Shown here: in pieces, positions 23,430-39,882 of the stretch
Position numbering within the stretch: position 1 is the first letter of the stretch
How the letters are laid out: each line of letters begins with the position of its first letter
NCBI GenBank assembly: GCA_043802685.1
Contig: JAZDKT010000078.1
Location: forward strand, 1-41,469
Length of the DNA: 41,469 nt
Reading direction: 5' to 3'
Source: Candidatus Falkowbacteria bacterium
GTDB lineage: Bacteria > Patescibacteriota > Patescibacteriia > Patescibacteriales > VMTK01
Translations under genes and position numbers: made by a program
Notes under the pieces: generated by a model
What the model was told of the DNA's origin: nothing
Database searches by the model: none
Seen by the model: the letters and a program-made list of their open reading frames with translations, nothing else

Positions 23430-23544
23430 ACACTCAAATCTACAAATAGCACTCAAATCTACGAATGCAATGCAAATCTACAAATAAAAACTCGCGCTTA
23501 AAAATAGCAAACGAGTTTTACAAAGCAAAATGTCGCTTTAAATA

Positions 23545-23847: not shown

Positions 23848-23886
23848 ATTTCCATTAACTTATGCGGCTTCGCCTACTTTAAATTT

Positions 23887-24252
23887 TTAAAAGTCCGCTT
23901 TCTCTTTAATAGCTTGGGCTTCCACAGACATAAGGCATTGGCCATTAATCATACCGCCTCGTTCAATACTTAAAATCTTACATTTAATGCCGCCCTTTAT
24001 CCACCCTGTTTTAGTGATGTGTAATTTTTCTTTCGCCTCAACATTACCTTCTGCCTTGCCAGCTACAATAATGCTGTTAGCCTTAATGTCAGCCTTGACC
24101 ATGGCCGACTTACTAATCTTAACATTTTTAGTATTTTCAATCATGCCATCTATCTTGCCGCTCACAACCAAATCTGCCAGGGATGATAATTTTCCCTCAA
24201 GTTTGGCTGAAGAATCAATAATGGTAGTGGAATATTTATTTTTTCCAAACAT
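23887..24252 (-). CDS. bactofilin (DUF583) family cytoskeletal protein
   Basis: Repetitive beta-helix pattern IDSSAKLEGKLSSLADLVVSGKIDGMIENTKNVKISKSAMVKADIKANSIIVAGKAEGNVEAKEKLHITKTGWIKGGIKCKILSIERGGMINGQ. Confidence 0.75.
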   Translation of the reverse strand: MFGKNKYSTTIIDSSAKLEGKLSSLADLVVSGKIDGMIENTKNVKISKSAMVKADIKANSIIVAGKAEGNVEAKEKLHITKTGWIKGGIKCKILSIERGGMINGQCLMSVEAQAIKEKADF

Positions 24253-24306
24253 ATCTTGGTTTCCAGAATCTAACGCAACACTATGTAAAAGCTAATAATT
24301 GATTTA

Positions 24307-24618
24307 TTACTGTTTAGTATTGAATTTAAGCTGTTTTTCCGGCTTTTTCGCCATCTTCCTTGCCCTAACATAATCTTCTTCTATCTCTATCTTTTTGGCT
24401 CGCGAACTTAAATAAGAATCGGTTTCCCACCAATCAATTCCCATTTCCTTAGCTTTATCCACTGAAGCTATCATTAACCTAATTTTAATTGTGAGCAACT
24501 CCACATCAGCAAGTTTAATCTGGATGTCGCCGGCAATAACAATGCCTTTGTCTAAAACGCGCTCTAAAATATCAGCTAAATTCGTAGCTTCTATACCATG
24601 GCTAATTTGTTCTGACAT
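24307..24618 (-). CDS. GvpA-family minor gas vesicle protein (GvpJ/GvpM/GvpS-like)
   Basis: LADILERVLDKGIVIAGDIQIKLADVELLTIKIRLMIASVDKAKEMG is the GvpA/J/M core (alpha-beta-beta-alpha) signature. Confidence 0.75.
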   Translation of the reverse strand: MSEQISHGIEATNLADILERVLDKGIVIAGDIQIKLADVELLTIKIRLMIASVDKAKEMGIDWWETDSYLSSRAKKIEIEEDYVRARKMAKKPEKQLKFNTKQ

Positions 24619-24662
24619 AAATTTTTTTTAATATTTATAATTGTTTAGTCCTAATAATTTTA

Positions 24663-25238
24663 TTACATTAAATTGCCCAGGGGTCCTAAATCTAAATTCA
24701 ATTCTTCATCTTCAATTCCAAAAACCGTTTTTAGCTCCTGCATTTTCTTCTCCATGGCTTTAAAAGTCATTCCTAACTTTTGAATTTCCGTATTAGAAAG
24801 AGATCCTTTTTGCATCCGCCTAATAACCTCTTTTTCCATTAACCTCCTTAATAACTCCACGAGAGTTAAAACTAATTTTGCTATGCCTTGTTCCGCTTTT
24901 TGGGGATTATCAGCATCAATGAGCTTGGGAATACTTGCTTCTGCCCTCTTTATTTCTTGCTCCAGCTTGGCAATATATTCTAAATCTTCCTTGGTTGGTT
25001 CTCGGCTGGGATAATAATCAGTCCCGGCGCTTTTCCAATTTTTACCGGACATTTCCTCTACTTTAGAAATAGAGGTTAGAAGAACTCTTAATCCTAAATA
25101 TATAAGATCTACATCAGCTACTCTTATTGCTACATCCCCGTTTATCACAGCCCCTTTTTCAAGAACTTTATCTAAAGCATCAATAAGAGTTACTCGCTGT
25201 TCTTTTGGTTTGGATAAAATTATTAGTGTATTTGCCAT
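24663..25238 (-). CDS. apparent fusion of a GvpJ/M-like (GvpA-family) domain and a GvpK-like domain
   Basis: aa ~15-62, TLIDALDKVLEKGAVINGDVAIRVADVDLIYLGLRVLLTSISKVEEM, is the GvpA-family core. aa ~113-175, QKAEQGIAKLVLTLVELLRRLMEKEVIRRMQKGSLSNTEIQKLG, is the GvpK signature (GLA.LVLT.VELLR.L.E+QA.RR...G.L). Confidence 0.7.
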   Translation of the reverse strand: MANTLIILSKPKEQRVTLIDALDKVLEKGAVINGDVAIRVADVDLIYLGLRVLLTSISKVEEMSGKNWKSAGTDYYPSREPTKEDLEYIAKLEQEIKRAEASIPKLIDADNPQKAEQGIAKLVLTLVELLRRLMEKEVIRRMQKGSLSNTEIQKLGMTFKAMEKKMQELKTVFGIEDEELNLDLGPLGNLM

Positions 25239-26071
25239 TTAATAAAATTGTAAGGCGGCCATGGGCCGCTATACTCAAAATTAAAACCTTTAGATTTATA
25301 TTCTTTATTTAATTTATTAATTTCTCTTGCAAAGTCTTTTAATTTTTCTTCTGAAATAAGAAAAATCGCATTTAAAATCATGGGCAAAGATTTACCTGTC
25401 AATTCTTTTTCTAAAATTTTACCTTTGGTTCCAGCAACCGCGCATTCTTTTAAATTTCTAAAAAAACTGTCAATATAATTTTCCAAAGCTCTGTCTGCTT
25501 CCCTTAAAACAGCATCATCTATCTGCTTTTGCATAAAATATGCCGTTCCTTCGGGAAGCAGGGCTATTTCTGTTTCTTTTTCCAGAACCACCGGACTAAC
25601 TCTTTTAACTTCATTACTAAAAGTTTGGCGGTTTAAATACGCCTTTACCGACCACTCTTGTTTTCCTGATAAATTTCTTAGATTTTCTTTGAATTTAAGG
25701 TAATATGTTTTAAGCATTTCCTTTATTTTTTCTTCGCTGTTAAAAATAGCGCCGAATTTCATGGGAATTGCCTCTTTTAATCTTTTATTTTTAAAGGGAT
25801 TCTTTTCTGCTGGAAAAGGAGAAAATTGAAATTCCATCGCTTCCTCTATTACCTGCTCATGAATTTGAGCTTTTTCTTTTACCCATTTTAAATTTTCTTG
25901 CGCTTTATTTTGAATTTCTTTTGAGCTGAATTCCTTTAAAGAAACATTGCTAACCACTGCTTCTAAATCCCTGAAAAAGACAGTAAAAACTTGACCCCTA
26001 TCAATTCCTTCTGCGGAAAATTTGGAATTAGTTTTTGCTCTAACGCAATAGAGATATAATCCCTGTTTCAT
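25223..26071 (-). CDS. GvpF/GvpL family protein
   Basis: N-terminal GLYLYCV start, the A.VS pattern (LEAVVSNV), and the C-terminal FEYSGPWPPYNF motif, as in GvpF/L. Confidence 0.8.
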   Translation of the reverse strand: MKQGLYLYCVRAKTNSKFSAEGIDRGQVFTVFFRDLEAVVSNVSLKEFSSKEIQNKAQENLKWVKEKAQIHEQVIEEAMEFQFSPFPAEKNPFKNKRLKEAIPMKFGAIFNSEEKIKEMLKTYYLKFKENLRNLSGKQEWSVKAYLNRQTFSNEVKRVSPVVLEKETEIALLPEGTAYFMQKQIDDAVLREADRALENYIDSFFRNLKECAVAGTKGKILEKELTGKSLPMILNAIFLISEEKLKDFAREINKLNKEYKSKGFNFEYSGPWPPYNFIKWQIH

Positions 26072-26085
26072 AAAGTTTGAATAGC

Positions 26086-26394
26086 TTATTCTTCGCTGCT
26101 GATTCCAGTATCTACTCTTTTTCGCATTTCTTTTCGCTCATAGCCAAGTAAATTGCCTTTTGCATCTAGCCTAATGTTATAAATTCCTAACACATCCATC
26201 CCGTCCGGGATAGATTTCTTTTCAACAATTTCAACTTTAACTACCCATTCTTCGCCTTCTTTTTTAAATCCTATCCCGGCTGGCGAGGAAAAACCGGTTA
26301 AATCAGCCAGCTGTTTTTTTGCTTTCTCAACAAGCTCTTTCGGCTCAAGATTTGATTTTACATCATTAGAAATGTTCTTTATTGTTTTTGTCAT
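26086..26394 (-). CDS. gvpO: gas vesicle protein GvpO
   Basis: AKKQLADLTGFSSPAGIGFKKEGEEWVVKVEIVEKKSIPDGMDVLGIYNIRLDAKGNLLGYERK parallels haloarchaeal GvpO (A+EQL.ELTG ... GW.V.VEVVE+.R.PD..DV...YEV.LD..GE..GY.R). Confidence 0.75.
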   Translation of the reverse strand: MTKTIKNISNDVKSNLEPKELVEKAKKQLADLTGFSSPAGIGFKKEGEEWVVKVEIVEKKSIPDGMDVLGIYNIRLDAKGNLLGYERKEMRKRVDTGISSEE

Positions 26395-26418
26395 AATAAT
26401 ATAAATTTAATAAATTAT

Positions 26419-26652
26419 TTATTCTCCTATTTTTTCTAAAATCTCTAATCTCTCTAAAATTTCCTCTTCTTCTTTTTGATATTCTGCTTCAGTAATTTCT
26501 TCCATTTCCAAACGCATTTGAATATCCAAAAGCTCTCTCTTGAGTTTTTCAGGAGTATCTGTTAATTCTTCTGCCACCATATCATTAATCTTATGAACAA
26601 CCCCCATAAATCCTCTGGCCGGGAGCAGTAATAAATCATCTATAATAAACAT
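26419..26652 (-). CDS. gvpG: gas vesicle protein GvpG
   Basis: MFIIDDLLLLPARGFMGVVHKINDMVAEEL followed by an acidic coiled coil matches GvpG (MF..DDLL..P...L......). Confidence 0.75.
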   Translation of the reverse strand: MFIIDDLLLLPARGFMGVVHKINDMVAEELTDTPEKLKRELLDIQMRLEMEEITEAEYQKEEEEILERLEILEKIGE

Positions 26653-26655
26653 AAA

Positions 26656-28665
26656 TTATATTCCGTATAATATTTTAGAAAAGCTATGCAATGAATCAAT
26701 TCCTCTAATATCATGCGGTAATAAAGGAACTAAAATTAAATTCTTCAAGGGATATTGTTTTTTAATTATACCCAGATATTTTTCTTGACCTTTTCTTTTG
26801 GCTAAACAGAAATTGCATTTGGAAGCAGGATTTATAAAATTGGCAATAATATAATTATAATTAATATTCATGCTTTCTAAAGATCCGTCCAAATCTTCCA
26901 TTTCTCTTATACCCATCTCCTCCGGAATGGTAATCATTAAAAATTCTGTTTTCGCGGAGCCAAATAAAATTTTCTGAATTTTTCTAATATCTCTGGATAA
27001 ATTTACTGTTTTTTGAGCAATTCCTTCTAATTTTAATCCTTGATATTTGCGAAGTATTTTAAAAATACTTTTAAGCCATTCTCTAACCAAGCCGGGAAGT
27101 TCTAAGAATCTAAGCAAATGGCCGGAAGCGGCTGAATCCAAAACATAAATATCATATTTGCTCCCACCCGCCAAATCCATAACTTTTCTTAAAGCCATTA
27201 GCTCTTCAAGCCCTGGCGGAGAAAGTTCCATCAACTCTTCCATAACCTGCTGATCGTAAACCACTTCTGCTCCCGGTCCTGTAAACTTATTAAATAACTC
27301 CTTAATACTCTCTTTATATTCATCTTTAAAATCTCTAAGACTTTTTTGAGTATCTATTTCTATGGCAAAAAGGTTATTAAAACCTCTGATAGAAACTGCT
27401 TCCGCGGCCAAGGGAATGTCTTGATCAAAAATATTGGAAAGAGCATGAGCCGGATCAGTGGTGGTAATAAGAATTTTTTTTTCTTTATGCTTTTTAGCCA
27501 GTGCCATAGCCGTAGCTGCCGCTATTGAAGTTTTGCCCACTCCTCCTTTCCCGCCGCAGATGACAAAGCTTAAATCCTTTTTTAAAAACTTTGCCATTTT
27601 GCCTTGAGGAATTTCTGGAAATTCAGGCAATTTTTTTGGCAAAATAATCTCAAACTCCTTCTCCGCGAATAAAATCCGAGCGTACTCATTTAAAGAATCT
27701 TGACCCCTAATTTCAGCGGGGAAAAGTGGCATCTTCAAAATCTGATAATCTTTTCCGCCCGAGACGGATCCGCCTTTGGCGGAAAATTTTTCTTCAATCA
27801 TTTTCAGATATTTTTCTTTTTCTTTTATTCTGGAAGCGCAAAGCGAGCATTCTCCTTCAACTGTTGCCATGCGATTAGCAATAATACTTTTTACTGAAAT
27901 TTTCATTATATCCAAATCTTTAACTAATTCCTCTGTCTCTAAAATACTCATTGGTTCGGGAATAGTTACTGGCACAAATTCAGTTGTTTCCTGATTTTTT
28001 AAAAGTTTTTCCACTCTTTCTATATCAGCCAGGGTCTTTGTTAAAAATTTATCACACTCATCATCAATATATTTTCTTCTTATCCGCTTCATAATAAACC
28101 GATGTTTTGCCATCATCAGGTCTGCCGCTTTTATCCATCTTTTCATCGCTTGAGGCAGGGATAAAAGAATCTTAGTGTGCCCGGTAGGAGCGGTATCAAG
28201 AATAATCAGATCATATTCTTTTTCTAAAAGCTCAGCAATTTTAATAATAGCCATTACTTCATCCATGCCTGGCATAGCCAGAGAAGTAAATTGTTCTATG
28301 TCCTCACTGTCAAGATAAGTTCCCCGATCAAGTAAAATTTTTATAGTTTCTGAATGTTGCTTGCGAAAATCTTCCATTAATTCTTTAGCCTCCATCTCAT
28401 AAGCCCAGATATTGTCTTGAATTTTAGTAATTTTATTGCCAACCTCTACATTAAAACTATCGCCAATGGAAGGGGCCGGATCAGTAGAAACTATTAAAAT
28501 TCTTTTGGTCTTGTATTTTTGGCCTAAGTATAAAGCGGTTGCGCAAGCGCAAGTAGTTTTGCCGCTGCCGCCCTTGCCGCCAAAGACAATAAACTTCAAT
28601 CTGTTATTAACAAGAAACTGATTTTTTGCCCTATTAGAAATTTTTGCTGAAATTTCCTTTTTCAT
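26656..28665 (-). CDS. tandem-domain ArsA/Get3-family P-loop ATPase
   Basis: Two deviant Walker A loops (FGGKGGSGKTT and CGGKGGVGKTS). The ArsA signature DTAPTGHT is present in half 1 and is degenerate (DSAASGHL) in half 2. Confidence 0.8.
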   Translation of the reverse strand: MKKEISAKISNRAKNQFLVNNRLKFIVFGGKGGSGKTTCACATALYLGQKYKTKRILIVSTDPAPSIGDSFNVEVGNKITKIQDNIWAYEMEAKELMEDFRKQHSETIKILLDRGTYLDSEDIEQFTSLAMPGMDEVMAIIKIAELLEKEYDLIILDTAPTGHTKILLSLPQAMKRWIKAADLMMAKHRFIMKRIRRKYIDDECDKFLTKTLADIERVEKLLKNQETTEFVPVTIPEPMSILETEELVKDLDIMKISVKSIIANRMATVEGECSLCASRIKEKEKYLKMIEEKFSAKGGSVSGGKDYQILKMPLFPAEIRGQDSLNEYARILFAEKEFEIILPKKLPEFPEIPQGKMAKFLKKDLSFVICGGKGGVGKTSIAAATAMALAKKHKEKKILITTTDPAHALSNIFDQDIPLAAEAVSIRGFNNLFAIEIDTQKSLRDFKDEYKESIKELFNKFTGPGAEVVYDQQVMEELMELSPPGLEELMALRKVMDLAGGSKYDIYVLDSAASGHLLRFLELPGLVREWLKSIFKILRKYQGLKLEGIAQKTVNLSRDIRKIQKILFGSAKTEFLMITIPEEMGIREMEDLDGSLESMNINYNYIIANFINPASKCNFCLAKRKGQEKYLGIIKKQYPLKNLILVPLLPHDIRGIDSLHSFSKILYGI

Positions 28666-29553
28666 ATCTTTAAATGCAATTCTACAAAATTAAAAGCAGG
28701 AATAGGGCCAATATATATAAACTTAATTCTCTTATTGTACTTTTTGATTAAAACATGCACTCTTTTATCAAACTCTCTTTCATTTTTTTTTTGAAACCAA
28801 GAAAGCATAACTGAAAATCATTGAATCTCTCATCGGTTCTAAAAATCTTATCAACTCTCTTTCTTTAAACTTTACCGCTAATTCTTTTAAAGATTTCAAG
28901 AGCTCTCCGGCTTCCCTTTCCCTTTTAGAGTCAACTGCCTTTTGGATTAATTCACCTACGCCGGCAATTCTAAATTGATGGGGATTTTTCTGGGCGTTTC
29001 TTTTTGCAATTTGAATTTCTTGATTCTCCTCAACTATTTCTTGAAAAATACTTGGCATATCTTTCCAAAATGCCCTAATGCCCAATTCTACTCTCCCTTC
29101 CACTATTGGAAATGTTTCTAAAAATTCTTTTCTTTTTGGCTTTAATATTTTTTCTTTAACATCTTCCGCGCTCTTGGCCACTGTGCCAAAACGAACCGGT
29201 AAAACATCATATCCTTGTTTCATCACTTCTTCAATAACCTTTTGATGGCGGGTTAGGTGTTCTTTAATAAAAGAATACTGATCTTTTGCCGTGTCAGTGA
29301 CTGCCATTGCCAATCCTCCTTTATTAATAGTATATACTTCTTTTCCTTCCTGCCCCGTTAGATATTTGTTCTCTTGATTCTTTTTATTCGCTCTTGTAAT
29401 ATCTAACGGGGCTTGCCGCAAAATTTTAAACTTTTGGGGCTTGCTTTCTTTAATAACACAATAAAGATATTTACCCTGATCTGAGTCTGATTGCCCCGCA
29501 GGCCTGTCATTTGGGACTCTGATTTGGGATTTTCCTTTTGCTTCAGCGGCCAT
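28662..29553 (-). pseudogene. GvpF/GvpL family gene interrupted by a +1 frameshift in an A10 run (possibly rescued by slippage)
   Basis: Frame 0 (29553..28780) ends ...IFSYAFLVSKKK-TGA. The +1 frame continues ...NEREFDKRVHVLIKKYNKRIKFIYIGPIPAFNFVELHLKI-TGA. This supplies the conserved GvpF/L C-terminus and ends in an ATGA overlap with the ArsA-like start at 28665. The start is placed at MAAEAKGK (29553), downstream of the preceding gene's stop. Confidence 0.7.
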
Positions 29554-29584
29554 AATTTTAATAATAATTGCTTTATAAAAATCT

Positions 29585-29929
29585 CTATTCTTGCGAAGTT
29601 GGTTTAGCCACAACAATGACCTGTTTTATAGCCACCACCAATCCGGCAGCTGCTATAAAAGCGATAAAATTTTCCAAAATTGAAGCGACTGCCAATGTTA
29701 ATTTTCCAAGCTGTAAACCGCCGACTCCAATTAAAAGCAAGGTGATCACGGCCACAAGAAACGGAATGCTTTCTTTTTCTTTTACATTTAAAAATCCAAC
29801 AATTAAACCTAAAACAAACAGAATAACTAATAGATACGGAATAGCGGCAAAGCCAGCCAGCACTGCAAACGCTATGCCTCCGATTAAAGCCCAGCGGCCA
29901 ATAGTTGTAAGATTATATTTTAATGCCAT
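29585..29929 (-). CDS. small 4-TM membrane protein, hypothetical
   Basis: Four hydrophobic helices (WALIGGIAFAVLAGFAAIPYLLVILFVLGLIVGF...FLVAVITLLLIGV...FIAFIAAAGLVVAI). Confidence 0.5.
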   Translation of the reverse strand: MALKYNLTTIGRWALIGGIAFAVLAGFAAIPYLLVILFVLGLIVGFLNVKEKESIPFLVAVITLLLIGVGGLQLGKLTLAVASILENFIAFIAAAGLVVAIKQVIVVAKPTSQE

Positions 29930-30092
29930 ATTTTTGAGATATTATTTGCCCTGCATTTTTTAAGCATTAAAATGAATAGACTTGCCGCGCAATTAGTCTC
30001 GCAACGCAATTTTATAATGCGAACTCTATAAAGAGTAATGCTTAAAAGATAAGTAGGGGTTATGAATTATAATAAAATTCGACCTTTAAAAA

Positions 30093-31160
30093 TTATTTAA
30101 TAATTAAAGAATTTCTTACATCTTCTTCCTTAAAAGAATATCTTTGATTCCTGTTTTCTCCAAAAAAACTGCCACAGCTTTTGCAATAACTTTTTAGAAT
30201 ACTATAAGCGCGAACTATTTTTTTCATTTGTTCTGCTGTTTCCTGATTATCTTGATGCTTATCCGGATGATATTGATGGGAAAGGGCATAATAAGCCTTT
30301 TTAATTTCTTCGGGACTAGCTTCCTCGCCCAGGCTCAATAATTTTCTTGCTTTATTTATTATTTCAAAATTACCTAAACTAAGATTAATATTAACAAAAC
30401 TATAGGGGGGCATTGGGCCAATATACTTAAACCTTAATTTCCCTTCGTATTTTTTACCCAATTCTTGCATTTTACTATCCAATTCAAACTCTCTGGACTT
30501 CTCTATTAAGAAAGAAAAGTTGGCTATCATGTCCTCGCTGATTAATTTATTTAAGGTGAAGTCATGAGCCATGATTCTTAAGAATGCTTCAATGTTCTTG
30601 ATATTAGTTTGCTTATAAGCTTCTGCCTGCCGCTGGATTAGTCTGCCTAACTTCAATTTAAGCGGCAGACCCAGAATACTTGTTTTGACGGACAACTGCT
30701 GTCTTAGCCCCTGAATTTCTGAATTAGTGTTAACTAATTCTTCAAGCAGCTTTTTTTGATCCCACCAGACTTGAACCGCAAACTCAACCTTGCCTGCTGT
30801 TGTTTTTAAAGCTGTTTTAAATTGAATATAAGCTTTCGCTAAAATACATTTTATTTCTTCATTATTAGGAGCAATAATCCCAAAAGCCATTGGCGCAACA
30901 TTATAATCTTTCATTATTTCTTCATTCACTTGCTGGTGGATGGCAATATGCCTTGTTAGTTCTTTTTTATCTAAACGATCAAAATTAATAACCGGGGTAT
31001 CTGAAACTGCCGCTGCTATATCTTGATAATTGAGAATGTTGATAACTTGATGATTAATTCCAATATAGCTAAGGCCGCTGGCATTGGCTTGGCCGAAAGC
31101 ATCGCGGGCGGCTCTTTTATCTTTATTCTGCTCAATTACGCAATAAATATATTTCCCCAT
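30093..31160 (-). CDS. GvpL/GvpF family protein fused to a C-terminal J-domain
   Basis: GKYIYCV start and the FKYIGPMPPYSF motif (GvpF/L). aa ~265-325, EEIKKAYYALSHQYHPDKHQDNQETAEQMKKIVRAYSILKS, has an intact HPD tripeptide (J-domain, nt about 30186-30368). Confidence 0.75.
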   Translation of the reverse strand: MGKYIYCVIEQNKDKRAARDAFGQANASGLSYIGINHQVINILNYQDIAAAVSDTPVINFDRLDKKELTRHIAIHQQVNEEIMKDYNVAPMAFGIIAPNNEEIKCILAKAYIQFKTALKTTAGKVEFAVQVWWDQKKLLEELVNTNSEIQGLRQQLSVKTSILGLPLKLKLGRLIQRQAEAYKQTNIKNIEAFLRIMAHDFTLNKLISEDMIANFSFLIEKSREFELDSKMQELGKKYEGKLRFKYIGPMPPYSFVNINLSLGNFEIINKARKLLSLGEEASPEEIKKAYYALSHQYHPDKHQDNQETAEQMKKIVRAYSILKSYCKSCGSFFGENRNQRYSFKEEDVRNSLIIK

Positions 31161-31264
31161 TTTTATCTAGTTAGAAAATTTTATTAGACTATGCCAAATT
31201 ATCCATAGCAAGTATTTGCAGATATCGCGAGCAATAGCGAGCCAATATCCGCAAGAGCATCCCA

Positions 31265-32341
31265 TTAATTTGTTCTTTTTCTATCAGCAATAGCGGCGAT
31301 TAACGCTCCTTTGGCAACAGTATAAAGCGGATGCGGAGCCATCCTTACTTCCTTTACTTTTAAAGGAAAACTCGTTTTCCCAAGTATCTCTTTAAACCTT
31401 TCAATAAATCCCTGCGGATTTGCCGTACCTCCTGAAACAATTATCGGAATGGGAGTTTCAAATTCAGGAATTTTGCCCTTTTCTTCAACCTCTTTTTTTA
31501 TTTGATCCAAAACATATTCAATCAGGTGATCATAATAAATAGAAAGGGCATGCTCAGTTTTAGTCATACTGCTTTCGCTCTTTTTAAGATTTAAAAAGTT
31601 TTCCTTAAAGGTAGTAATTTTGCTGATTGGCTCATTGGTAACAATGGCAACTTGTTCATCAATCCAGTCCCCGGCTTTAGCCACGCTGAAAGAAAACACC
31701 GGCGCAGACATTAAGGATAGGCAGACATTAGCCATTCCGCCGCCAAATGATATGCCCATGCCCGTAAAATTATCTTCTGCTAATTCAGAAAAAATTACCG
31801 CTAAACCCTCGTTCAAGGGCTTTGCTTGGTACCCCCATTTTTCAAGAAATCCTTTTATTATATTTTGATGGTAAATATTATCAAAATCCGCGTCAATTGG
31901 AGGGCCGGGAACAGAAAAATAACAAATTTCATTTTTTTCAGCAGGCGGCTCTAAAACGCTTTTTATTATCAATTCAATAATTGGCAATGCTTCGGTTTCT
32001 TTAGCGCTAATTACTCCGCTCTTTAGCGGTCTTCTGGTGTTGCCGCCAAAAACATTAGCAAACTTCATAGCATCGCTTCCCACCACATAAATTTTATCTT
32101 GACCCAGGACATATTTGACATTACTTTTTTCTAATATCCCTTGGGTAAATTCAGAATATTCAACATCGAAAAAAGCATCTCTTTGAGCCCTAAAACTTAC
32201 CTGTGAATTTATTTTTTGAGCGCAGTAAATAAAAGCGGTGCCGACATCTAATCCTTTGCCCATTTGCGGTAAAACCAATTTATTTGTTTTTGTACGATTC
32301 TCTTTAGCCATAGAACCGCGGGCATGTTGTTGTTTTGTCAT
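31265..32341 (-). CDS. actin-fold (MreB/ParM/Hsp70 superfamily) ATPase
   Basis: Phosphate-1 GLDVGTAFI, the MreB-like RPLKSGVIS, phosphate-2 GISFGGGMANVC, and the adenosine motif IIVSGGTANPQGF. Confidence 0.7.
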   Translation of the reverse strand: MTKQQHARGSMAKENRTKTNKLVLPQMGKGLDVGTAFIYCAQKINSQVSFRAQRDAFFDVEYSEFTQGILEKSNVKYVLGQDKIYVVGSDAMKFANVFGGNTRRPLKSGVISAKETEALPIIELIIKSVLEPPAEKNEICYFSVPGPPIDADFDNIYHQNIIKGFLEKWGYQAKPLNEGLAVIFSELAEDNFTGMGISFGGGMANVCLSLMSAPVFSFSVAKAGDWIDEQVAIVTNEPISKITTFKENFLNLKKSESSMTKTEHALSIYYDHLIEYVLDQIKKEVEEKGKIPEFETPIPIIVSGGTANPQGFIERFKEILGKTSFPLKVKEVRMAPHPLYTVAKGALIAAIADRKRTN

Positions 32342-32411
32342 ACTTTTTATTTAATACTTATTTTTTCCTCTTCTTTTTCGACCTTTTCGCCCGGTTAAAA
32401 ATTTACTATTC

Positions 32412-32873
32412 CTATTTATTTCTCATCTTCTCAAAATAATTTCTAACCGGGTTTAAAAAACAAGCCGCCCTCTCAATACTTTGGCCTAAATTTAATTTTT
32501 TCTCTTCCGGCTCAAATTTATTCTCTGGATTTTTACTGCTAACCTTTTTTGCTAAATACTTAAAGTTATCCTCTAACGGCTTTACCTTTAATTTTTTAGG
32601 GAAATAATAAATTACTTTTTCTATATTTTTTTCTTTTTTAAAAACTTTCGGCTTTATTAAACATCTACATTCCAGTTCTTTTATTCCTTTAAAAGCGATC
32701 TTATACCAATCCCGTTTTCCTTTAATCGGCTTAATCCATCCTTTTTTAAATAAACAATCGCAAATATAACGAATGTAATCAATGCCGAATTTTGTCTGGC
32801 TGGAAATTAATTTAATATTGGATTCTTCTTTATTTTCCCAAATTTTTTTTAAAACTTTTAATTCACTATTCAT
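32412..32873 (-). CDS. small putative winged-helix protein, paralog of 36124..36462
   Basis: The N-terminus LKVLKKIWENKEESNIKLISSQTKFGIDYIRYICDCLFKKGWI aligns with RVLEIIWDWGGEASVNIITREANISIDYARLICESLARESCI. Function unknown. Confidence 0.4.
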   Translation of the reverse strand: MNSELKVLKKIWENKEESNIKLISSQTKFGIDYIRYICDCLFKKGWIKPIKGKRDWYKIAFKGIKELECRCLIKPKVFKKEKNIEKVIYYFPKKLKVKPLEDNFKYLAKKVSSKNPENKFEPEEKKLNLGQSIERAACFLNPVRNYFEKMRNK

Positions 32874-33273
32874 ATAACCTAGAAGACTTTAATTTATCTT
32901 TTGCTTGATCCAATATATCAAAATTCTCTTTTTCTGCCATTCTTAATTCATCTATAAACTCCTTGCTTTTGCTTTGCAGCTTTTTTAATAACATTATCCT
33001 CATCTCTAAATTTTTTTCTAATTCCTTAACTTCCTGATAGGTCTTTTCTAAAGCTATTTGTTCCCGCGCTATTTCCTTTTGATGCTCATTTATTTTTTTA
33101 ATTAAATCAATGTTCTCTTCTTTTACTTTTGAATTAATTTGTTGCGCTTCTTCCTTTAAGGGAGAAAGCGGTTTTCTGCTCATAGCAAACTCTATCTGGG
33201 GCGCTTTGTTTAATTCTTCCCCTGCCTCCTTTAATCCTTCTATGATGCTTTTGGGGCTTGCATTTGATTCCAT
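32866..33273 (-). CDS. coiled-coil protein, hypothetical
   Basis: 135 aa with heptad-rich K/E sequence. It overlaps the 3' end of the AAA+ gene by 34 nt and the next gene by 8 nt. Confidence 0.4.
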
Positions 33274-35450
33274 ATTATTTTAAAATGATTATTAGTAATT
33301 TTAAATTTTTGGCAGTTTTTTAAACTTTTTAACCCGACCGCTTCACTGCCTGCCCGCAAAGCCTTAGTAAGCGGGCGCGAATCATCGCGGATAAATTTAA
33401 CAAATTCTCTAATAGCTAAAATTGAAGCTTGCTTGCAAATGGCTTCAATATCAGATCCTACTAATCCTTTGCTTTCTTTAGCTAAATTTTCTAAATTCAC
33501 ATCTTTAGCCAATGGCTTGCCTCTTGTATGAATTTTAAATATCTCCAACCTTGTTTTCCCATCCGGCTTTGGCACCTCTAAAATAAAATAAAAGCGGCCG
33601 GTTCGGCGCAATGCAGGGTCAATCAAATCCAAGCGGTTGGTAGCTCCAAGGATTACAACCCCTTTAAGCTCTTCAATGCCATCAAGTTCAGTTAAAAATT
33701 GGCTTACTACTCTCTGAGTTACAGAGGAGTCAACGTTTTGGCTGCGAGCAGGAACCAAACTGTCCAGCTCATCAAAAAAAACAATGCAAGGACTGGCTTG
33801 CTTAGCTTTTTTAAAAACTTCCCTTACTGCTTTTTCAGATTCTCCTATGTATTTTGATAAAAGCTCAGGACCCTTGACAGAAATAAAATTTACGCCGCAT
33901 TCAGACGCTACTGCTTTGGCTATTAAAGTCTTGCCTGTTCCGGGAGGGCCGTAAAGCAAAATTCCTTTAGACGGACTGGTTTTGGTATAATCAAAAAGTT
34001 TGCTATATTTCAATGGCCACTCAATGGTTTCTTTTAAGGTCTGCTTTATTTGTTCCAAACCTCCCACATCCTTCCACCTAACATCAGGAATTTCAGTAAA
34101 AATTTCTCTTAAAGCTGACGGCTCAACTTCTTTTAATGCTTCTATAAAATAATCCGCGGTTACTTCCATCTCTAAAAGTTTTTTATAAGGAATATATTCT
34201 TTAGCAAATTCAATCTCCGGCATGATTTTTCGCAGAGCCGACATGGCTGCCTCTCTAACCAAAGCTTCTAAGTCTGCCCCCACAAAGCCATGGGTTATTT
34301 CAGATAGCTTGTCTAAATTAACATCTTCTCCCAGGGGCATGCCTCTAGTATAAATTTCCAATATTTCTTTTCTGCCATTTTTATCAGGAATACTAATGGC
34401 AATCTCTCTATCAAATCGGCCCGGTCTTCGCAATGCCGGATCCAGGGTATTGGGAATATTAGTGATTCCAATAACTACCAAATTGCCCCTTGATTCCAAG
34501 CCATCCATTAAAGCCAGCAATTGGGCAACCACTCTTCTTTCCACTTGTTTTTCTCCGCCCATATCCTCTCTTTTAGGGGCAATGCCGTCAATTTCATCTA
34601 TAACTAAAATGGCAGGGGCATTAGCTTGGGCATCCTCAAATACTTCTCTTAATCTTGCTTCTGACTCCCCATAAAATTTGCCCATGATTTCAGGCCCGGA
34701 AATAGAAGTAAAATAAGCATCAGTTTCGTTAGCTACCGCTCTGGCAATCAAAGTTTTGCCGCAACCAGGGGGTCCGTATAATAAAACTCCCTTGGGAGGA
34801 TCTATGCCTAATCTCTCAAAAACCTCGGGATATTTTAAGGGAAGTTCAATCATCTCTCTAATCCTGCCGATTTCTTTTTTAAGTCCTCCGATGTCTTCAT
34901 AAGTGACTCCTACTCCCTGCTTGTCTTTTGCTTCTCCCTTGATCTTGATTAAAGTAGCGGGAGTAATCAAAACAGCTCCTTGAGGGTCAGTAGCTTCCAC
35001 TAAAAAATCCTGGGATTTACTGCCAAAAAAGGTTACTCTTATTTTATTTCCTTTTAAAACCGGGGTGCCGTCTAATATTTTGGCCAAATATTCACTACTT
35101 TCTTGTTTTTTAAAAGATCCGTCTAAACTTAAAGGAGATAAAACTAAAGTATTAGCTTTCTCATAAGAAGTCTTTTGAATTTCAACCTTTTCATCTAAAC
35201 CTGTCTTAAGGTTGTCTCGCGCTATGCCATCTATTTGAACAATCTCTTTGCCGCGATCTTCTGAATAAGCGGGCATTAATTTGGCTACTACTTCTTTACC
35301 CTCCACTTTTAACCTAATTATATCTCCTGCATCTGCCTGAATTTTTGCAAAATATTCAGGGTCTACTCTGGCTATTGCCCTGCCCGCGTCCTTGCTCCGG
35401 GCTTCTGCTATCTTAAGAACTATTGATTTTGTTTGCGCTTTTTTAATCAT
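33240..35450 (-). CDS. Cdc48/VAT/p97-like double-ring AAA+ ATPase
   Basis: Cdc48-type N-domain ([22 protein letters not shown]...[11 protein letters not shown]). Two AAA modules carry Walker A GPPGCGKT and GPPGTGKT and Walker B ILVIDEID and IVFFDELD, with second-region-of-homology motifs. Confidence 0.88.
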
Positions 35451-35547
35451 AAATCATGAAACAATCCTTCGGCGTATTTATATTCGCATGCAGACATAAT
35501 TTGCGGCATTGGGATTATATCTGTGTGAATTAACCCGCTAACTTTTT

Positions 35548-36114
35548 CTAAAATATTTTTTTTAACTTCACTTTTAATATCCCGTTTTTAAAATCTATTT
35601 TACGGGACTGGAAATCTACGCTGTCCGGCAGTAAAATCTCTTTGGCATATTTCCTGTCTTGATTACCGGCTTCAATTATAAGAATGTCTTTCTTGAGATC
35701 AAGTTTAATGGCTTTTTCATCAATGCCGGGAAGTTCAGCGATAATTAAAATGTGATCCTTCTCGTTAAAAACATCAACTATCGGCTCTCTATTTTCCACA
35801 ACCTCAACTTCCTTTTTACCGGCTTTTTTTTCAACAGGCCGAATATTGCCAAAAGTTTGCACTCGCGGCCGGCCGCCAATACCGCTTCTTATTGAAAATC
35901 CATAAACCCCTTTAGCATCCTTTCCTTTTCCCAAACCCCTGATTTTTCCTTCTTTTCTAATCTCTCCCCCGGCTTCTTCAACTTTTTCCGCTAAATCAAT
36001 AAATTTCCCCAATCCCTTAATTAATCCTCCAACCAAAGGCAAATCTTCAAGCATCTCTAATTCTTCCCTTGCCTGATCAGTGTTCTTTTTTTCACTTTTT
36101 TTATATTTAACCAT
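35548..36114 (-). CDS. Hsp20/alpha-crystallin domain protein (GvpH-like position)
   Basis: The C-terminal alpha-crystallin pattern is VDVFNEKDHILIIAELPGIDEKAIKLDLKKDILIIEA......YAKEILLP..VD.....IDFKNGILKVKLKK. Confidence 0.7.
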   Translation of the reverse strand: MVKYKKSEKKNTDQAREELEMLEDLPLVGGLIKGLGKFIDLAEKVEEAGGEIRKEGKIRGLGKGKDAKGVYGFSIRSGIGGRPRVQTFGNIRPVEKKAGKKEVEVVENREPIVDVFNEKDHILIIAELPGIDEKAIKLDLKKDILIIEAGNQDRKYAKEILLPDSVDFQSRKIDFKNGILKVKLKKIF

Positions 36115-36123
36115 ACCCTAAAA

Positions 36124-36462
36124 TCAATAGTTTAGAATTAATTTTCCTTTTTTATCTTTACCTAAACCAAACCTACTCAGCCTTTCAGGAAGAACAATTT
36201 TTCTTGCCCCGTTAAAAAATTTTTGACTTCTAACGAGGTGAAGATTCCGGTCTTTTTTTCTTGCGGCTATTAACTTTCCTTTATCTTTTATATTGCACAA
36301 TTTGGAGCGCGAAAAATCAATACAACTTTCCCTTGCCAAGCTCTCGCAAATAAGCCGGGCATAATCAATACTAATGTTCGCTTCTCTGGTAATAATATTA
36401 ACTGAAGCCTCTCCTCCCCAATCCCAAATTATCTCTAAAACTCTTTGTTCATTTGTAGTCAT
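36124..36462 (-). CDS. small putative winged-helix protein, paralog of 32412..32873
   Basis: See the N-terminal alignment to 32412..32873. The C-terminal tail is KKGKLILNY. Confidence 0.4.
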   Translation of the reverse strand: MTTNEQRVLEIIWDWGGEASVNIITREANISIDYARLICESLARESCIDFSRSKLCNIKDKGKLIAARKKDRNLHLVRSQKFFNGARKIVLPERLSRFGLGKDKKGKLILNY

Positions 36463-36472
36463 AAATCTAATG

Positions 36473-36820
36473 CTAATATCCTAATACTATCTTTCCTTTT
36501 TTCTTCCCGCCGACATTTGAGCTGCGGCCGCTTCCTCCTTCTGCCGCCCCTCGTATCTTAACTGCTGTTTGAGTAGCTTTGGCAAGAAGTTTGTTCATTT
36601 CTTTTTCCACATCTTCCAATCTTGTTTGCAGTTGCACTTTTCTTCTTCTTGTCCTTTTTAACTCCCCTGTTAATCTATCTTTTTCATTCCTTCGCATATA
36701 CAAATCTAAAATAGCCGTAGTGGGAAGATCTGGTTTGCCGCTTTTTTTCACTGCTCCGGTGTATGTCCTTAAATCATGAAGACTATTAACATCTTGAAAC
36801 GTTTTTATTGATGTTTTCAT
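36473..36820 (-). CDS. small basic coiled-coil protein (possibly GvpV-like)
   Basis: ILDLYMRRNEKDRLTGELKRTRRRKVQLQTRLEDVEKEMNKLL is reminiscent of the short coiled-coil GvpV-type proteins found next to gvpN in cyanobacteria and Serratia. This is from memory only. The C-terminal tail is KKGKIVLGY. Confidence 0.35.
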   Translation of the reverse strand: MKTSIKTFQDVNSLHDLRTYTGAVKKSGKPDLPTTAILDLYMRRNEKDRLTGELKRTRRRKVQLQTRLEDVEKEMNKLLAKATQTAVKIRGAAEGGSGRSSNVGGKKKGKIVLGY

Positions 36821-36829
36821 AATTTTTAG

Positions 36830-37771
36830 TTAACAGTATTTTTTAATTAAATCTTTAACCAAATTTTCTATTTCTTTGCGGCGCGGCGACCATGGGCTGC
36901 GAGTAGTCTGTGAAACTAATACATCTTTAGCTAATTGTTTAAATTGCGAGTCAGAAGCCGAAACCTTTCCTTTGATAGCTCCTAAAACCTTGCCAAGAAT
37001 AATACAACTGCGGACAGTCGGAGGAAATTCACAAGGATTGCTTGTTCTCATTCCTCTTACTATATCAACGATTTTTTCCGCGTCTTCCTTGGGAATCCCT
37101 GATTTAGCCTGGGTTATTGCAACCTCGGTTTTTCTGTCAAAATACTCTAAATCCATTGTTACCATTCTATCCCTTAAAGCATCCTGCGCTTTATGAGTGC
37201 CGGCATATTCTTCAGGATTAGAAGTAAAGATTGCGCAAAAATCAGGATGAACTTTTAAGTAGTGGCGCTCATCTCCGTCTCTTTTCATCGGCAGGTCCAT
37301 TACTTTCTCTTGTAAAATTGAAAGTAAAATATTATTAGCTTCCGGTTTTGATCTGGTAAACTCATCATATATTAAAGTAAAGCCATGCTTGCAGGCGATA
37401 GTCAAGCGATTATCCATCCAGCGCTTAGACATATCTTGTTCTACTTTTAGGACGCTGGAAATAAAATTATCCTTTAAATATCTGTAGTGATATCCCTGCT
37501 CGCCTCCTACTAAATCAGAAGTTTTATGTTCTTCGTCGCCATGAAACAAAACCACCGGCCTGCCAATCTTGCTTGCCACATGCAGAGCCATGGTTGTTTT
37601 ACCGGTTCCCGTAGGACCTCTAAAATGAACCGGGATGCCAACTTTAAAATAATTTAAAGCTCGACTGGTAATCCGCTTTACATACGGAGTTTCAATAAAG
37701 TCAGCCATTGGCCGCGCCTCAATAACCGCTTGCTCTTCTTCTGTTGATAAATAAGGCATATAATAATCCAA
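36830..37771 (-). CDS. gvpN: gas vesicle AAA+ ATPase GvpN
   Basis: FRGPTGTGKTTMALHVA (Walker A), LIYDEFTRS (Walker B) and the size (~310 aa) are typical of GvpN (MoxR/CbbQ-like). Confidence 0.85.
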   Translation of the reverse strand: MDYYMPYLSTEEEQAVIEARPMADFIETPYVKRITSRALNYFKVGIPVHFRGPTGTGKTTMALHVASKIGRPVVLFHGDEEHKTSDLVGGEQGYHYRYLKDNFISSVLKVEQDMSKRWMDNRLTIACKHGFTLIYDEFTRSKPEANNILLSILQEKVMDLPMKRDGDERHYLKVHPDFCAIFTSNPEEYAGTHKAQDALRDRMVTMDLEYFDRKTEVAITQAKSGIPKEDAEKIVDIVRGMRTSNPCEFPPTVRSCIILGKVLGAIKGKVSASDSQFKQLAKDVLVSQTTRSPWSPRRKEIENLVKDLIKKYC

Positions 37772-37831
37772 TAAAATTTAGATGATTTTAGATAGAATAA
37801 ATTTGACCTTGAATGTCAAAATTTTTTATTT

Positions 37832-38350
37832 TTATTTCTTTTTTTTACTTTTTTCTTTTGTTGTTGCGTGCGTTTCCTCTAATGCATCTTCTTTTTCTGC
37901 CGCTATCTCTTTGCCTTTTGAGCCAGCCCAATAATGAGCGGCTTCTTTTCGTTCTATTCTATAACCGCCAAGAAGAGATTTAGTGGATCTTCTGATTTCC
38001 TCCACTACCGCATTAACATCTTTCATTGTTGCTTTAAAATCAGCTATCCTTTTGTCTTTACTATCGGCTATAAAACTTTTTACACCGCCTTTTATGTCTT
38101 TAACATCGGACTTTATTCCTTGAATCATATTATGAAAATTTTTCTTTCTTGCCTCTTCGCTTTTGCTTAAAAAATCTTTAAGCTCTATGGACATTTCTCT
38201 TAATTCACTGCCCATGTTTTTCATGTAATCATCAGCTGATCCCAAAATATTTCTACTTTCCTTTTTTATCTCGTTAATACTATCCCTTCTGTCTTTATGG
38301 TTAATTTTAATTTCAACTGCTAAATTTTTCATTTCTTGCGCCCAAGCCAT
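37832..38350 (-). CDS. coiled-coil protein, paralog of 39096..39632
   Basis: Shared blocks are RKKNFHNMIQGI vs RKKDFNKMMEDI, and IERKEAAHYWAG vs MEREKVAVEWEG. Lys/Glu-rich with a predicted helical repeat character. Confidence 0.5.
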   Translation of the reverse strand: MAWAQEMKNLAVEIKINHKDRRDSINEIKKESRNILGSADDYMKNMGSELREMSIELKDFLSKSEEARKKNFHNMIQGIKSDVKDIKGGVKSFIADSKDKRIADFKATMKDVNAVVEEIRRSTKSLLGGYRIERKEAAHYWAGSKGKEIAAEKEDALEETHATTKEKSKKKK

Positions 38351-38532
38351 AATTTTATATAAATTTAAAATTTAGGATTCTCGCCCTGTTAAATATAGAA
38401 TTATCTAAACAGAGCGAACTTTAAATTTCAAATTTTTAAATTAAAAATTATTTTATATTTCGACCTTTTGATTATTAGACCTGTTGCGTAATAAGTTGCG
38501 TGACAATCCTATTAAAATTCTTTGACAAAAAA

Positions 38533-38838
38533 TTAATAATTGCCAATCTCCGGCAACCCGGTATCAGCGCCCAGCCCCTTCCTGCCTTTTCTACCGTCTT
38601 TCGGAACCACTCCTCTGCCTTTGCAAACAGAACAAGCCAATCTATGATGAGCAAAAACCCCTGTTCCATTGCAAGCCGTGCATGTCTGGTGTGGAATATC
38701 CGCAATCATAACTATTCCCTTTCCTAAACAAACTTGGCAATTAGAAAGAATTGAGGGAACTCCAAAAGGATCTTTGCCTTTGCCTTTGCAAAAGGCGCAA
38801 ACAGCTTTTTTATAATTAATCGCTATTTTCTTAGGCAT
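38533..38838 (-). CDS. DnaJ-type cysteine-rich zinc-finger protein (4 x CxxCxGxG)
   Basis: CAFCKGKG, CQVCLGKG, CTACNGTG and CSVCKGRG are the four-repeat zinc-centre pattern of the DnaJ central domain. No J-domain is present. Confidence 0.65.
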   Translation of the reverse strand: MPKKIAINYKKAVCAFCKGKGKDPFGVPSILSNCQVCLGKGIVMIADIPHQTCTACNGTGVFAHHRLACSVCKGRGVVPKDGRKGRKGLGADTGLPEIGNY

Positions 38839-38870
38839 AAAGCTTTTATTATAAATATTTTAATATTTTT

Positions 38871-38981
38871 AGGAATTACGCGTTTGGCAATATTTTATTA
38901 TCAGCACCGAGTGCTGTCGCAGCACTCGGTGCTGATAATAAAATAACAGTTTTGCTTTTTACATTCAAGCGCGTAATTCCT
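38871..38981. repeat. nested palindrome: perfect 22-bp arms with a 3-nt loop, inside 12-bp outer arms
   Basis: The inner pair is TTATTATCAGCACCGAGTGCTG tcg CAGCACTCGGTGCTGATAATAA (38895-38941). The outer pair is AGGAATTACGCG (38871-38882) and CGCGTAATTCCT (38970-38981). Confidence 0.9.
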
Positions 38982-39095
38982 AATTTTACTAAACTTTGGC
39001 GCTTTTGGCGATAATTGGCGATAATTTAGCGAGAGAGATGTTTTCTAATCTGCGATTCTGCTCCAAAGCGCTCCAAAGGCGCCAAAGTCCTGATT

Positions 39096-39632
39096 TTATT
39101 TCTGTCTTTTTTGGGCCATTAAAGCCACCATGCCTTCCCATTCTACGGCCACTTTTTCCCGCTCCATTTTAAAATTCTCAAGCATTTTATGAATTTCTGA
39201 TTGCATTTGATCAAACTCTATTTTTATATTTCCTGAACTCTTTTTTCCTCTGATTTCTTGTTCTTTTTTAATTTTTACTAAAGTTTTCTTAAAATCTTTA
39301 AGTCTTAACTCTTCCCCCTTGCTAAGCATTTCTCTAAGATATTTAACTACTGCGGTTTCTTGATCCTGAAAATCAGTTAACATCTGTTTTACATTTTCTT
39401 CACGATTTTTTTGAGCAAATAAAATATCCTCCATCATCTTATTGAAATCTTTTTTTCTTAAAGATTGAAATTTAGCCAAAGCTTCCCTAAGTTCCTCTCC
39501 CATCCTTTTCCTTTTTTGCTTAAATTCTTCCAGCAATCTTCTGGTGTCTTCAACTATCTCTCCAACTACTTTTATGCGAACTTCATAAGCGGCCACGATA
39601 TCTTTGGCGATTTTAAAATTACTACTACCCAT
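39096..39632 (-). CDS. coiled-coil protein, paralog of 37832..38350, second gene after gvpA
   Basis: See the paralog blocks listed for 37832..38350. 178 aa, K/E-rich. Confidence 0.5.
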   Translation of the reverse strand: MGSSNFKIAKDIVAAYEVRIKVVGEIVEDTRRLLEEFKQKRKRMGEELREALAKFQSLRKKDFNKMMEDILFAQKNREENVKQMLTDFQDQETAVVKYLREMLSKGEELRLKDFKKTLVKIKKEQEIRGKKSSGNIKIEFDQMQSEIHKMLENFKMEREKVAVEWEGMVALMAQKRQK

Positions 39633-39882
39633 ATTTTAATAAAGCTTTAATAAATATACAAAAGCTTGTATTTACTATTTTGGCTTATCATTAATCATTC
39701 ATCTTATTAGTCCATAAAAAATTCTGTCTAAACAAATAAAATAATCAGCAGTTTGGGACATGCTTAAAGCTTGGGAAAAATTCCCCGCAAAGGGTAAAAA
39801 AATTTGCGCTTTGCCATGTTGCATTAAGGATGTCTCAAACAAAAAAATTTTTAGATTACTCCTAAAGAGTCATCTTAAAACG

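Follow-up and report, generated by a model that had tools for sequence, protein, structure and literature searches.

In a 41,469-nucleotide stretch of DNA from Candidatus Falkowbacteria bacterium (GenBank assembly GCA_043802685.1, contig JAZDKT010000078.1, positions 1 to 41,469 of the forward strand; hereafter the window), a gene lying inside a gas-vesicle (gvp) operon encodes what is, judged from its sequence and modelled structure, an actin-superfamily ATPase of the Volactin family. The bacterial subclade to which this protein belongs (about 47% identity or more to the window protein) was found almost always embedded in a distinctive chaperone-rich gvp operon, where the actin gene travels as a small module with a winged-helix partner (o153 in the window) encoded upstream and, in members of the Candidate Phyla Radiation (CPR), also with a second small protein (o135), and where the actin is an optional accessory of the gvp cluster and not part of its core. 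The original prediction, made from the letters of the window, had read an actin-type nucleotide-binding site in this gene and suggested the active positioning or clustering of gas vesicles; the explanation that we favour, tentatively and with a confidence somewhat short of even, is of the same kind, namely that by analogy with known systems the actin would belong to an optional filament system positioning, aligning or partitioning gas vesicles, with o153 as the candidate link.

The open reading frame (31265..32341, minus strand) is intact, begins with ATG, and encodes 358 amino acids. All four motifs quoted in the original prediction are present in it: DVGT at residues 32-35 (phosphate-1, D32-G34-T35), RPLKSGVI at residues 104-111 (within RRPLxxGVIS, 103-112), GGGMANV at residues 200-206 (where phosphate-2 reads S198-FGGGM-N205), and SGGTA at residues 303-307 (adenosine motif, G304-G305-T306). 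To these can be added a catalytic-type glutamate, E178, within NEGLAV and a GDWID motif at residues 224-228. The phosphate-2 aspartate is replaced by serine (S198), a residue found there in 104 of 108 family sequences, and signatures including S-F-G-[GA]-G-M-x-N, GDWID, and NEG[LM]AV are common to three haloarchaeal homologues and to 104-108 of the 108 family sequences. Across 47 sequences at 54-78% identity, 58 positions are invariant, all of the nucleotide-binding motifs among them. The start codon is ambiguous between M1, M11, and M27, no clear ribosome-binding site being visible, and the first 22 residues are predicted to be disordered in an AlphaFold2 model.

Pfam assigned the protein to Volactin (PF25216; E=2e-95, 320.4 bits against a cut-off of 35), with residues 27-350 covering profile positions 1-321 of 321. 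This family has already been named (Pfam PF25216; PMC10869688). Dynamic, ParM-like filaments have been shown in vivo for its founding member alone, the volactin (VolA, HVO_2015) of Haloferax volcanii, which promotes the change of cells from rods to disks (PMC10869688). We recovered 1282 homologues of the window actin, the closest at 57-81% identity and labelled ‘hypothetical’ or ‘FtsA’ by NCBI, and an exhaustive search of a library of 50%-identity representatives returned, at E up to 1e-3, 1182 representatives of the Volactin family, many with more than one domain. One distant member (P0177) is fused to a Wzz/GNVR/ParA-type tyrosine-kinase module, and two others (P0125 and P0141) have weak, sub-threshold Pfam matches to a ParB-type helix-turn-helix (HTH) at the N-terminus.

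The AlphaFold2 model, built from 47 homologues (pLDDT 89, pTM 0.86), agreed with a protein of the filament-forming kind. Its best Foldseek match in the PDB was MreB of C. crescentus (4czl, E=2.9e-14), accompanied by MamK, including the filament form 5ljv (TM-score 0.66/0.72, ~18% structural-alignment identity), the BeeR filament (TM-score 0.70), and then crenactin, FtsA, and eukaryotic actin; the top 50 matches consisted of filament actins, EutJ (rank 33), and one activase. The original prediction had classed the protein with filament-forming actins as opposed to sugar kinases or Hsp70-type chaperones, and neither of the latter occurred within the Foldseek top 50, so that this assignment held, with Volactin as the best family and MreB, MamK, and BeeR as the best structures. 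A sequence search against PDB chains returned nothing above MreB at E=0.1.

Four narrower identities were rejected. All MreB family models scored below their cut-offs (Pfam MreB_Mbl, 18.6 bits against 27; NCBIfam PRK13927, 18.5 against 293; TIGR00904, 16.4 against 365.75), as did the NCBIfam model of MamK (NF040964, 24.9 bits against 400), for which Pfam scans found no magnetosome genes in the window. FtsA, a name that some sources use for homologues, was matched in neither Pfam nor NCBIfam; the best FtsA structure ranked 27th in Foldseek (TM-score 0.55), and the C-terminus of the window protein stops right after the last core helix. Hsp70/DnaK was set aside on the lack of an Hsp70 signature (no HSP70 Pfam match at E up to 1) and of a substrate-binding domain, for which 358 residues leave no room.

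Conservation of the gvp linkage was evaluated in 80 loci, the best 80 of 526 relatives found in a metagenome scan, all at least 53% identical to the window actin. These loci were picked by similarity to that protein, using a narrower alignment (A1) because the 108-sequence family alignment (A2) was too diverse for a pattern scan; they are thus biased to close relatives, and the linkage figures hold for that clade only. They comprised 72 distinct bacterial actin sequences, and their gvp content was scored with the window's own Gvp proteins. Core gvp genes were present in 39 of the 41 loci whose flank measured at least 3 kb and in 28 of the 29 where it measured at least 5 kb. The first homologues looked at, from metagenome-assembled genomes (MAGs) of Patescibacteria (70% identity), Minisyncoccales (62%), and Omnitrophica (57%) and from a MAG labelled Gammaproteobacteria (57%), were all inside gvp clusters (4/4) whose gene orders differ. 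A scan of a genome collection with a single protein returned one locus only (L007), and three further gvp-linked members of the clade came by other routes (L094, L097, and L100), of which L097 (protein P0123), at 47.5% identity, has a gvpA beginning 93 nucleotides downstream. Hosts of the gvp-linked actins fall within the CPR/Patescibacteria, the Omnitrophica, and other uncultured bacteria, and the GC content of the loci, 0.33-0.61, likewise indicates that the hosts are diverse. The location within gvp operons is therefore conserved across independent lineages, in dozens of independent loci and several gene orders, and the arrangement noted in the window is not a one-off.

A neighbour-joining (NJ) tree of 208 actin domains united the gvp-linked sequences in one clade, outside which lay the haloarchaeal volactins together with 132 of the 133 other representatives. 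Outside this clade, gvp linkage was found in none of the seven contexts examined (three haloarchaeal, two phage-like, one sugar-metabolism locus, and one Planctomycetota tandem pair). In the haloarchaeal loci (L008-L010) there are no gvp genes, and a membrane protein of ~300 residues is conserved upstream; one haloarchaeal copy lies close to rdfA and an SMC-like shape gene. The two phage-like contigs carry Volactin genes at ~44-45% identity, one among baseplate, tail, and terminase genes (L091, 10001-11005) and the other among many small open reading frames (L095, 6928-7941), so phages may encode actins of this family. The Planctomycetota locus has two Volactin genes in tandem (L096, 6975-9926).

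Within the window, the gene sits inside a gas-vesicle locus as originally described, in a co-directional minus-strand operon at ~23.5-40.5 kb, whose features are as follows, those without a source in brackets from Pfam scans unless designated by a handle:

23545..40537, minus strand: whole co-directional gvp operon, 17 kb
39883-40101, minus strand: GvpA
38533-38838, minus strand: DnaJ-type Zn-finger protein
36830-37771, minus strand: GvpN
36473-36820, minus strand: o115, adjoining o112
36124-36462, minus strand: o112, a paralogue of o153 with the same winged-helix N-domain (hidden Markov model, HMM, of the partner N-domain)
35548-36114, minus strand: Hsp20
33240..35450, minus strand: CDC48-type double AAA+ ATPase, a conserved accessory (Pfam CDC48_N, CDC48_2, and two AAA domains)
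32866..33273, minus strand: o135, small and probably coiled-coil (iterated profile)
32412..32873, minus strand: o153, small winged-helix protein, directly upstream of the actin gene
31265..32341, minus strand: actin homologue
30093..31160, minus strand: GvpF/L-J-domain fusion, HPD motif present (Pfam GvpL_GvpF, E=7e-57; DnaJ, E=6e-15)
28780-29616, minus strand: GvpF/L
26656-28665, minus strand: tandem ArsA
26419-26652, minus strand: GvpG
26086-26394, minus strand: GvpO
25223-26071, minus strand: GvpL/F
24663-25238, minus strand: GvpJ-GvpK fusion
24307-24618, minus strand: GvpJ
23887..24252, minus strand: bactofilin, at the 3' end of the operon (PF04519, E=2e-25)
40831..41199, plus strand: Xre-type HTH regulator, divergent, at the operon head (Pfam HTH_3, E=8e-13)

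The operon has three GvpF/L genes, one of them fused to the J-domain and the immediate downstream neighbour of the actin gene. The intergenic gaps around the actin gene are 70 and 104 nucleotides, and promoter and terminator scans, otherwise uninformative, found no strong terminator around it. No Pfam family was found for o153, o135, o114, o172, or o178. This type of gvp cluster is unusually rich in chaperones and ATPases (J-domain fusion, DnaJ Zn-finger protein, Hsp20, CDC48, and tandem ArsA); the CDC48-type protein is 70-75% identical in related loci, a J-domain was found in 41 loci and was absent from L007, L020, L071, and L078, and the Xre-type regulator is kept at the operon head in L003, L007, L024, L098, and L100 (tblastn and contexts). 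The rest of the window holds genes for release factor 1 (RF-1), PFOR subunits, LeuRS, and RtcB, housekeeping genes from which we conclude that the locus is chromosomal, and no plasmid or integrase genes were found in the window. Two proteins encoded nearby have identical counterparts in NCBI, annotated to a ‘Patescibacteria group bacterium’ and a ‘Candidatus Parcubacteria bacterium’, and the host accordingly belongs to the CPR.

The bactofilin to which the original prediction had pointed at the 3' end of the locus was borne out and recurs after the last gvpJ in five of the ~15 independent loci of sufficient length, and both main branches of the clade are represented among the five:

window, 23887-24252, minus strand: bactofilin
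L007, 12914-13393: bactofilin
L094, 11167-11589: bactofilin
L089, 7629-8081: bactofilin
L053, 11870-12316: bactofilin

By inspection, nearly all of the bacterial loci have an open reading frame of the o153 type immediately upstream of the actin, and a profile of the o153 N-domain matched 76 loci, in a CPR-type form (~150 residues) and an Omnitrophica-type form (~172 residues). Residues 1-70 of o153 are modelled as a winged helix (AlphaFold2 pLDDT above 94), which superposes on the MarR and AspA folds at 1.5-1.9 Å root-mean-square deviation over ~68 residues, at a Foldseek E of only ~6e-3; AspA is the centromere-binding protein of pNOB8. A variable, basic, disordered linker follows, and then a conserved C-terminal helix (129-152) of the type EEKKLNLGxxIEKAVSFLK in the CPR form, its place being taken by a different motif at a similar position in the Omnitrophica form. 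This layout resembles that of ParR and makes o153 a candidate adaptor. The sequence-variable o135, probably a coiled-coil protein, occurs in 30 loci, all of the CPR type (the L040 type, described below, included), and always just upstream of the o153-type partner. Profiles of o153 had no match in the 150-580-residue N-terminal extensions of multi-domain Volactin proteins, where a fusion of the two might have been seen. The C-terminal tails of o112 and its neighbour o115 are similar (GKLILNY and GKIVLGY) and may be a shared docking motif, and a third o153 paralogue, with a helix-hairpin-helix C-terminus, was found in L098 (12537-13154) and L099 (10091-10813).

Three related clusters were picked through GvpN alone (L098, L099, and L100). 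In L100, the partner and the actin are both present, whereas L098 (Ca. Doudnabacteria, GvpN 81% identical) and L099 (GvpN 76% identical) have the same cluster type and gene order, J-domain included, with the actin and o135 absent. The absence of the actin from two of three clusters chosen in this way limits what can be claimed for its link to gvp genes, and the near-identity of clusters with and without it indicates that it is not core assembly machinery and is not needed to build vesicles. The idea that the C-terminal helix of the partner would be lost along with the actin, as a sign of direct interaction, was ruled out, the helix being retained in both L098 and L099. A canonical mreB lies directly beside the divergent HTH regulator of the L098 cluster (4663-5673).

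Genes for FtsZ homologues, some with long basic N-terminal extensions, adjoin three gvp-linked clusters (L016, L024, and L071). In L071, where FtsZ is followed by the partner and then the actin, the arrangement looks operonic, and in L040 two tandem paralogues stand beside the module:

L040, 2830-4365 and 4707-6071: two tandem FtsZ paralogues
L024, 17413-18894: FtsZ homologue
L016, 13725-15386: FtsZ homologue
L071, 6281-7423: FtsZ homologue

Among characterized systems, the haloarchaeal volactins are the nearest by descent: megaplasmid homologues are 43-46% identical to the window protein and share with it GLDVGT, RRP[LM]xxG, NEG[LM]AV, SFG[GA]GMxN, GDWID, and GGT[AS]. Volactin, however, is archaeal, apparently essential, and concerned with the rod-to-disk shape transition, whereas the window protein falls in a distinct bacterial subclade that is optional and gvp-embedded; none of the haloarchaeal genes examined adjoins gvp genes, and the gene conserved upstream of them is a different one, in place of that for the winged-helix partner. 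An orthologue of volactin in a haloarchaeal-type context was accordingly rejected as a description of the window gene. The closest functional analogy is offered by MamK and MamJ, likewise an actin encoded in an organelle cluster next to a small partner, although the window protein is not of the MamK family, its winged-helix partner is unrelated to MamJ, and its cargo would be a gas-filled protein shell with no lipid membrane. ParM/ParR/parC and the Alp systems similarly pair an actin with a small neighbouring adaptor, in which a flexible linker joins an N-terminal fold of the DNA-binding type to a C-terminal helix; there the fold is a ribbon-helix-helix and not a winged helix, and the window locus, unlike theirs, is chromosomal, lacks centromere-like repeats, and lies among gvp genes. 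A type II partition system of the ParM/Alp kind was rejected on these grounds, its adaptor-like partner being present but its repeat array being absent from a chromosomal locus.

MreB, the best structural match, shares the RP[LM]xxGVI motif with the window protein, and the binding of RodZ to MreB via an HTH domain (complex 2wus, in the Foldseek list) is a loose parallel to the winged-helix partner; the window gene differs in having no mreCD or rodZ neighbours and in its phosphate-2 substitution of Asp by Ser. Finally, GvpU of Bacillus megaterium, a gas-vesicle clustering factor that acts by phase separation (bioRxiv 10.1101/2023.06.01.543273), is like the window actin a non-essential accessory encoded in a gvp cluster, but it is not a nucleotide-driven filament and has no relation to it in sequence or fold.

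Under the positioning hypothesis, the window actin would polymerize with ATP into dynamic filaments, as volactin, MamK, and ParM do, an expectation drawn from homology and structural similarity. The filaments would form an optional track or scaffold by which gas vesicles are positioned, aligned, or partitioned between daughter cells, and o153 would link filament to cargo through its C-terminal helix, following the logic of ParR with ParM and of MamJ with MamK. In ultra-small cells with few rigid vesicles, random inheritance would be unreliable, and an active system might be favoured. This hypothesis best explains why the gene has been kept between gvp genes through rearrangements across phyla and yet can be lost without loss of the cluster, and the recurrence of other cytoskeletal genes (bactofilin in five loci; FtsZ in L016, L024, and L071) was counted in its favour, as was the chromosomal and apparently operonic setting. 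A fuller version, to which we give a confidence well below even, is that the CPR, the Omnitrophica, and related bacteria possess a dedicated gas-vesicle cytoskeleton, made up of a Volactin filament, a winged-helix adaptor, a coiled-coil factor, and sometimes bactofilin or FtsZ, that positions and partitions the vesicles. As to the organelle-dedicated actin of the original prediction, the filament-type fold and the conserved gvp linkage speak for it, while two parts of that picture need correction, since the family had already been named and the actin is optional.

A number of observations weigh against positioning as the function. In a subclade of 12 sequences, o135, o153, and the actin lie directly upstream of one or two ftsZ paralogues, and no gvp genes were found within distances of up to 10 kb (in L040, 10 kb of downstream flank); the persistence of the module with no gvp genes adjacent suggests that it may serve something more general. 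The monophyly of the gvp-linked clade had an NJ bootstrap of 45% as drawn; the 75% reached once P0123 was added was counted in favour of the linkage. An o153-type protein is kept, C-terminal helix included, in the actin-less L098 and L099, and o153 has paralogues within the same operon, the orthologues of o112 being matched by the partner N-domain HMM at E=1e-11 to 1e-13, so that o153 is not strictly an actin-specific adaptor; its modelled winged helix and basic linker would suit DNA binding equally well. The function proposed for the actin is itself read from gene neighbourhood and analogy. The ftsZ-linked subclade itself has an NJ bootstrap of 100% and joins the gvp-linked L003 in 96% of replicates, the two together falling inside the CPR branch in 95%, and this nesting within gvp-linked CPR lineages indicates that its arrangement was derived from a gvp-linked ancestor. 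The synteny of two loci agrees with such a derivation, a 3D-domain protein and FtsZ following the gvp cluster in L024 and the three-gene module lying between the same 3D-domain protein and FtsZ in L040.

The alternative that draws most on these observations is a general cytoskeleton for cell shape or division (made up of the actin, o153, and o135, perhaps with FtsZ) that is merely co-located or co-regulated with gvp genes, since cells filling with rigid vesicles would have to adapt their form or division in step. In haloarchaea, volactin acts in morphogenesis (PMC10869688), the module stands beside two ftsZ paralogues and no gvp genes in a robust nested subclade, FtsZ abuts three gvp-linked clusters (with the apparently operonic order of L071), bactofilin recurs, and the actin-less L098 has a canonical mreB alongside. 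A housekeeping gene would not, however, be expected to remain inside gvp operons through rearrangements and across phyla, as in 39 of 41 loci, or to be dispensable in sister clusters, and FtsZ is adjacent in a minority of loci; we regard this explanation as unlikely, though one to be taken seriously. An improbable one is that the protein is a non-cytoskeletal ATPase of vesicle biogenesis, a chaperone or assembly factor such as an Hsp70-nucleotide-binding-domain-like partner of the adjacent J-domain. The intact HPD motif of the neighbouring fusion, the J-domain in 41 loci, the actin fold of Hsp70 nucleotide-binding domains, and the family-wide replacement of the phosphate-2 Asp by Ser could all be accommodated by it, but not the want of an Hsp70 Pfam match, of a substrate-binding domain, and of any Hsp70 in the Foldseek top 50. 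Nor do J-domain and actin co-vary, the former being absent from four actin-bearing loci (L007, L020, L071, and L078) and present in two actin-less ones (L098 and L099); moreover, the characterized Volactin member forms filaments (PMC10869688), and the natural actin-less clusters suggest that vesicles assemble without the actin.

DNA segregation in the manner of ParMRC, with the winged-helix protein bound to a centromere-like site and the actin pushing apart the chromosome or a gvp-carrying mobile element, appears quite improbable. The likeness of the o153 winged helix to MarR and AspA, its basic linker and C-terminal helix as in ParR, the helix-hairpin-helix motif of the third paralogue in L098 and L099, and the weak ParB-type HTH of some distant family members are what such a system might show, and salactin, another haloarchaeal actin, aids DNA partitioning according to a statement quoted in PMC10869688. 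Against this, no centromere-like repeat array was found near the module in the window, L040, L024, or L071, where there were only two-copy AT-rich matches; the context is chromosomal and free of plasmid or integrase genes, the module lies mid-operon between gvp genes, and the partner survives without the actin. That the gene is a neutral hitch-hiker, a selfish or decaying insertion with no gas-vesicle role, would agree with its optional presence in related clusters and with the distant family members on phage-like contigs, but we consider it very improbable indeed given the intact frame, the 58 invariant positions across 47 sequences that include all nucleotide-binding motifs, the linkage kept across several gene orders and host GC contents of 0.33-0.61, and the absence of flanking mobile-element genes.

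In the open-access and bioRxiv literature searched, outside which most subscription journals lie, we found no paper describing an actin-like component of gvp clusters, which agrees with the original prediction, and no discussion of the gvp clusters of CPR bacteria, whose GvpN proteins are already labelled by NCBI pipelines. Little is known about the arrangement and inheritance of gas vesicles, the phase separation of GvpU being the only mechanism described in that literature. What we rate as new here would, by analogy, be an organelle-cluster-encoded bacterial actin that follows the logic of MamK but belongs to the Volactin family and has a cargo that is new. If the positioning hypothesis is true, gas vesicles would join magnetosomes and low-copy plasmids as cargo of bacterial actins, and the CPR, bacteria whose cell biology is almost wholly unexplored, would gain a testable cytoskeletal function. 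In its fuller version, the hypothesis would also describe, for the first time, a cytoskeleton that serves gas vesicles and would for the first time assign a function to a cytoskeletal filament of the CPR. The module is also compact, three small genes in a portable operon, and would suit the heterologous gas-vesicle expression used for acoustic reporter genes, where control of vesicle placement would have practical value. Two results stand even if positioning fails: Volactin, so far described only as a haloarchaeal shape protein, is a large family across archaea, bacteria, and phage-like contigs, and one bacterial subclade of it is tightly tied to gvp operons.

Several features of the window outside the gvp operon were also recorded. 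The LeuRS gene (17728-20856, plus strand) is unusually long, at 1042 amino acids, and has an alpha/beta-hydrolase domain (Ser_hydrolase, PF06821, E=6.8e-13) inserted at residues ~403-550, between the editing and anticodon-binding domains. A gene for a 23S rRNA intervening-sequence protein (PF05635, E=1e-32; 13642-14043, minus strand) is flanked by the genes for the PFOR subunits on one side and for a DsbA-like thioredoxin on the other. A 19-nucleotide tandem repeat of 2.9 copies (23431-23486) is situated just past the 3' end of the gvp operon, and a G16 homopolymer (41403-41418) is found close to the end of the window.

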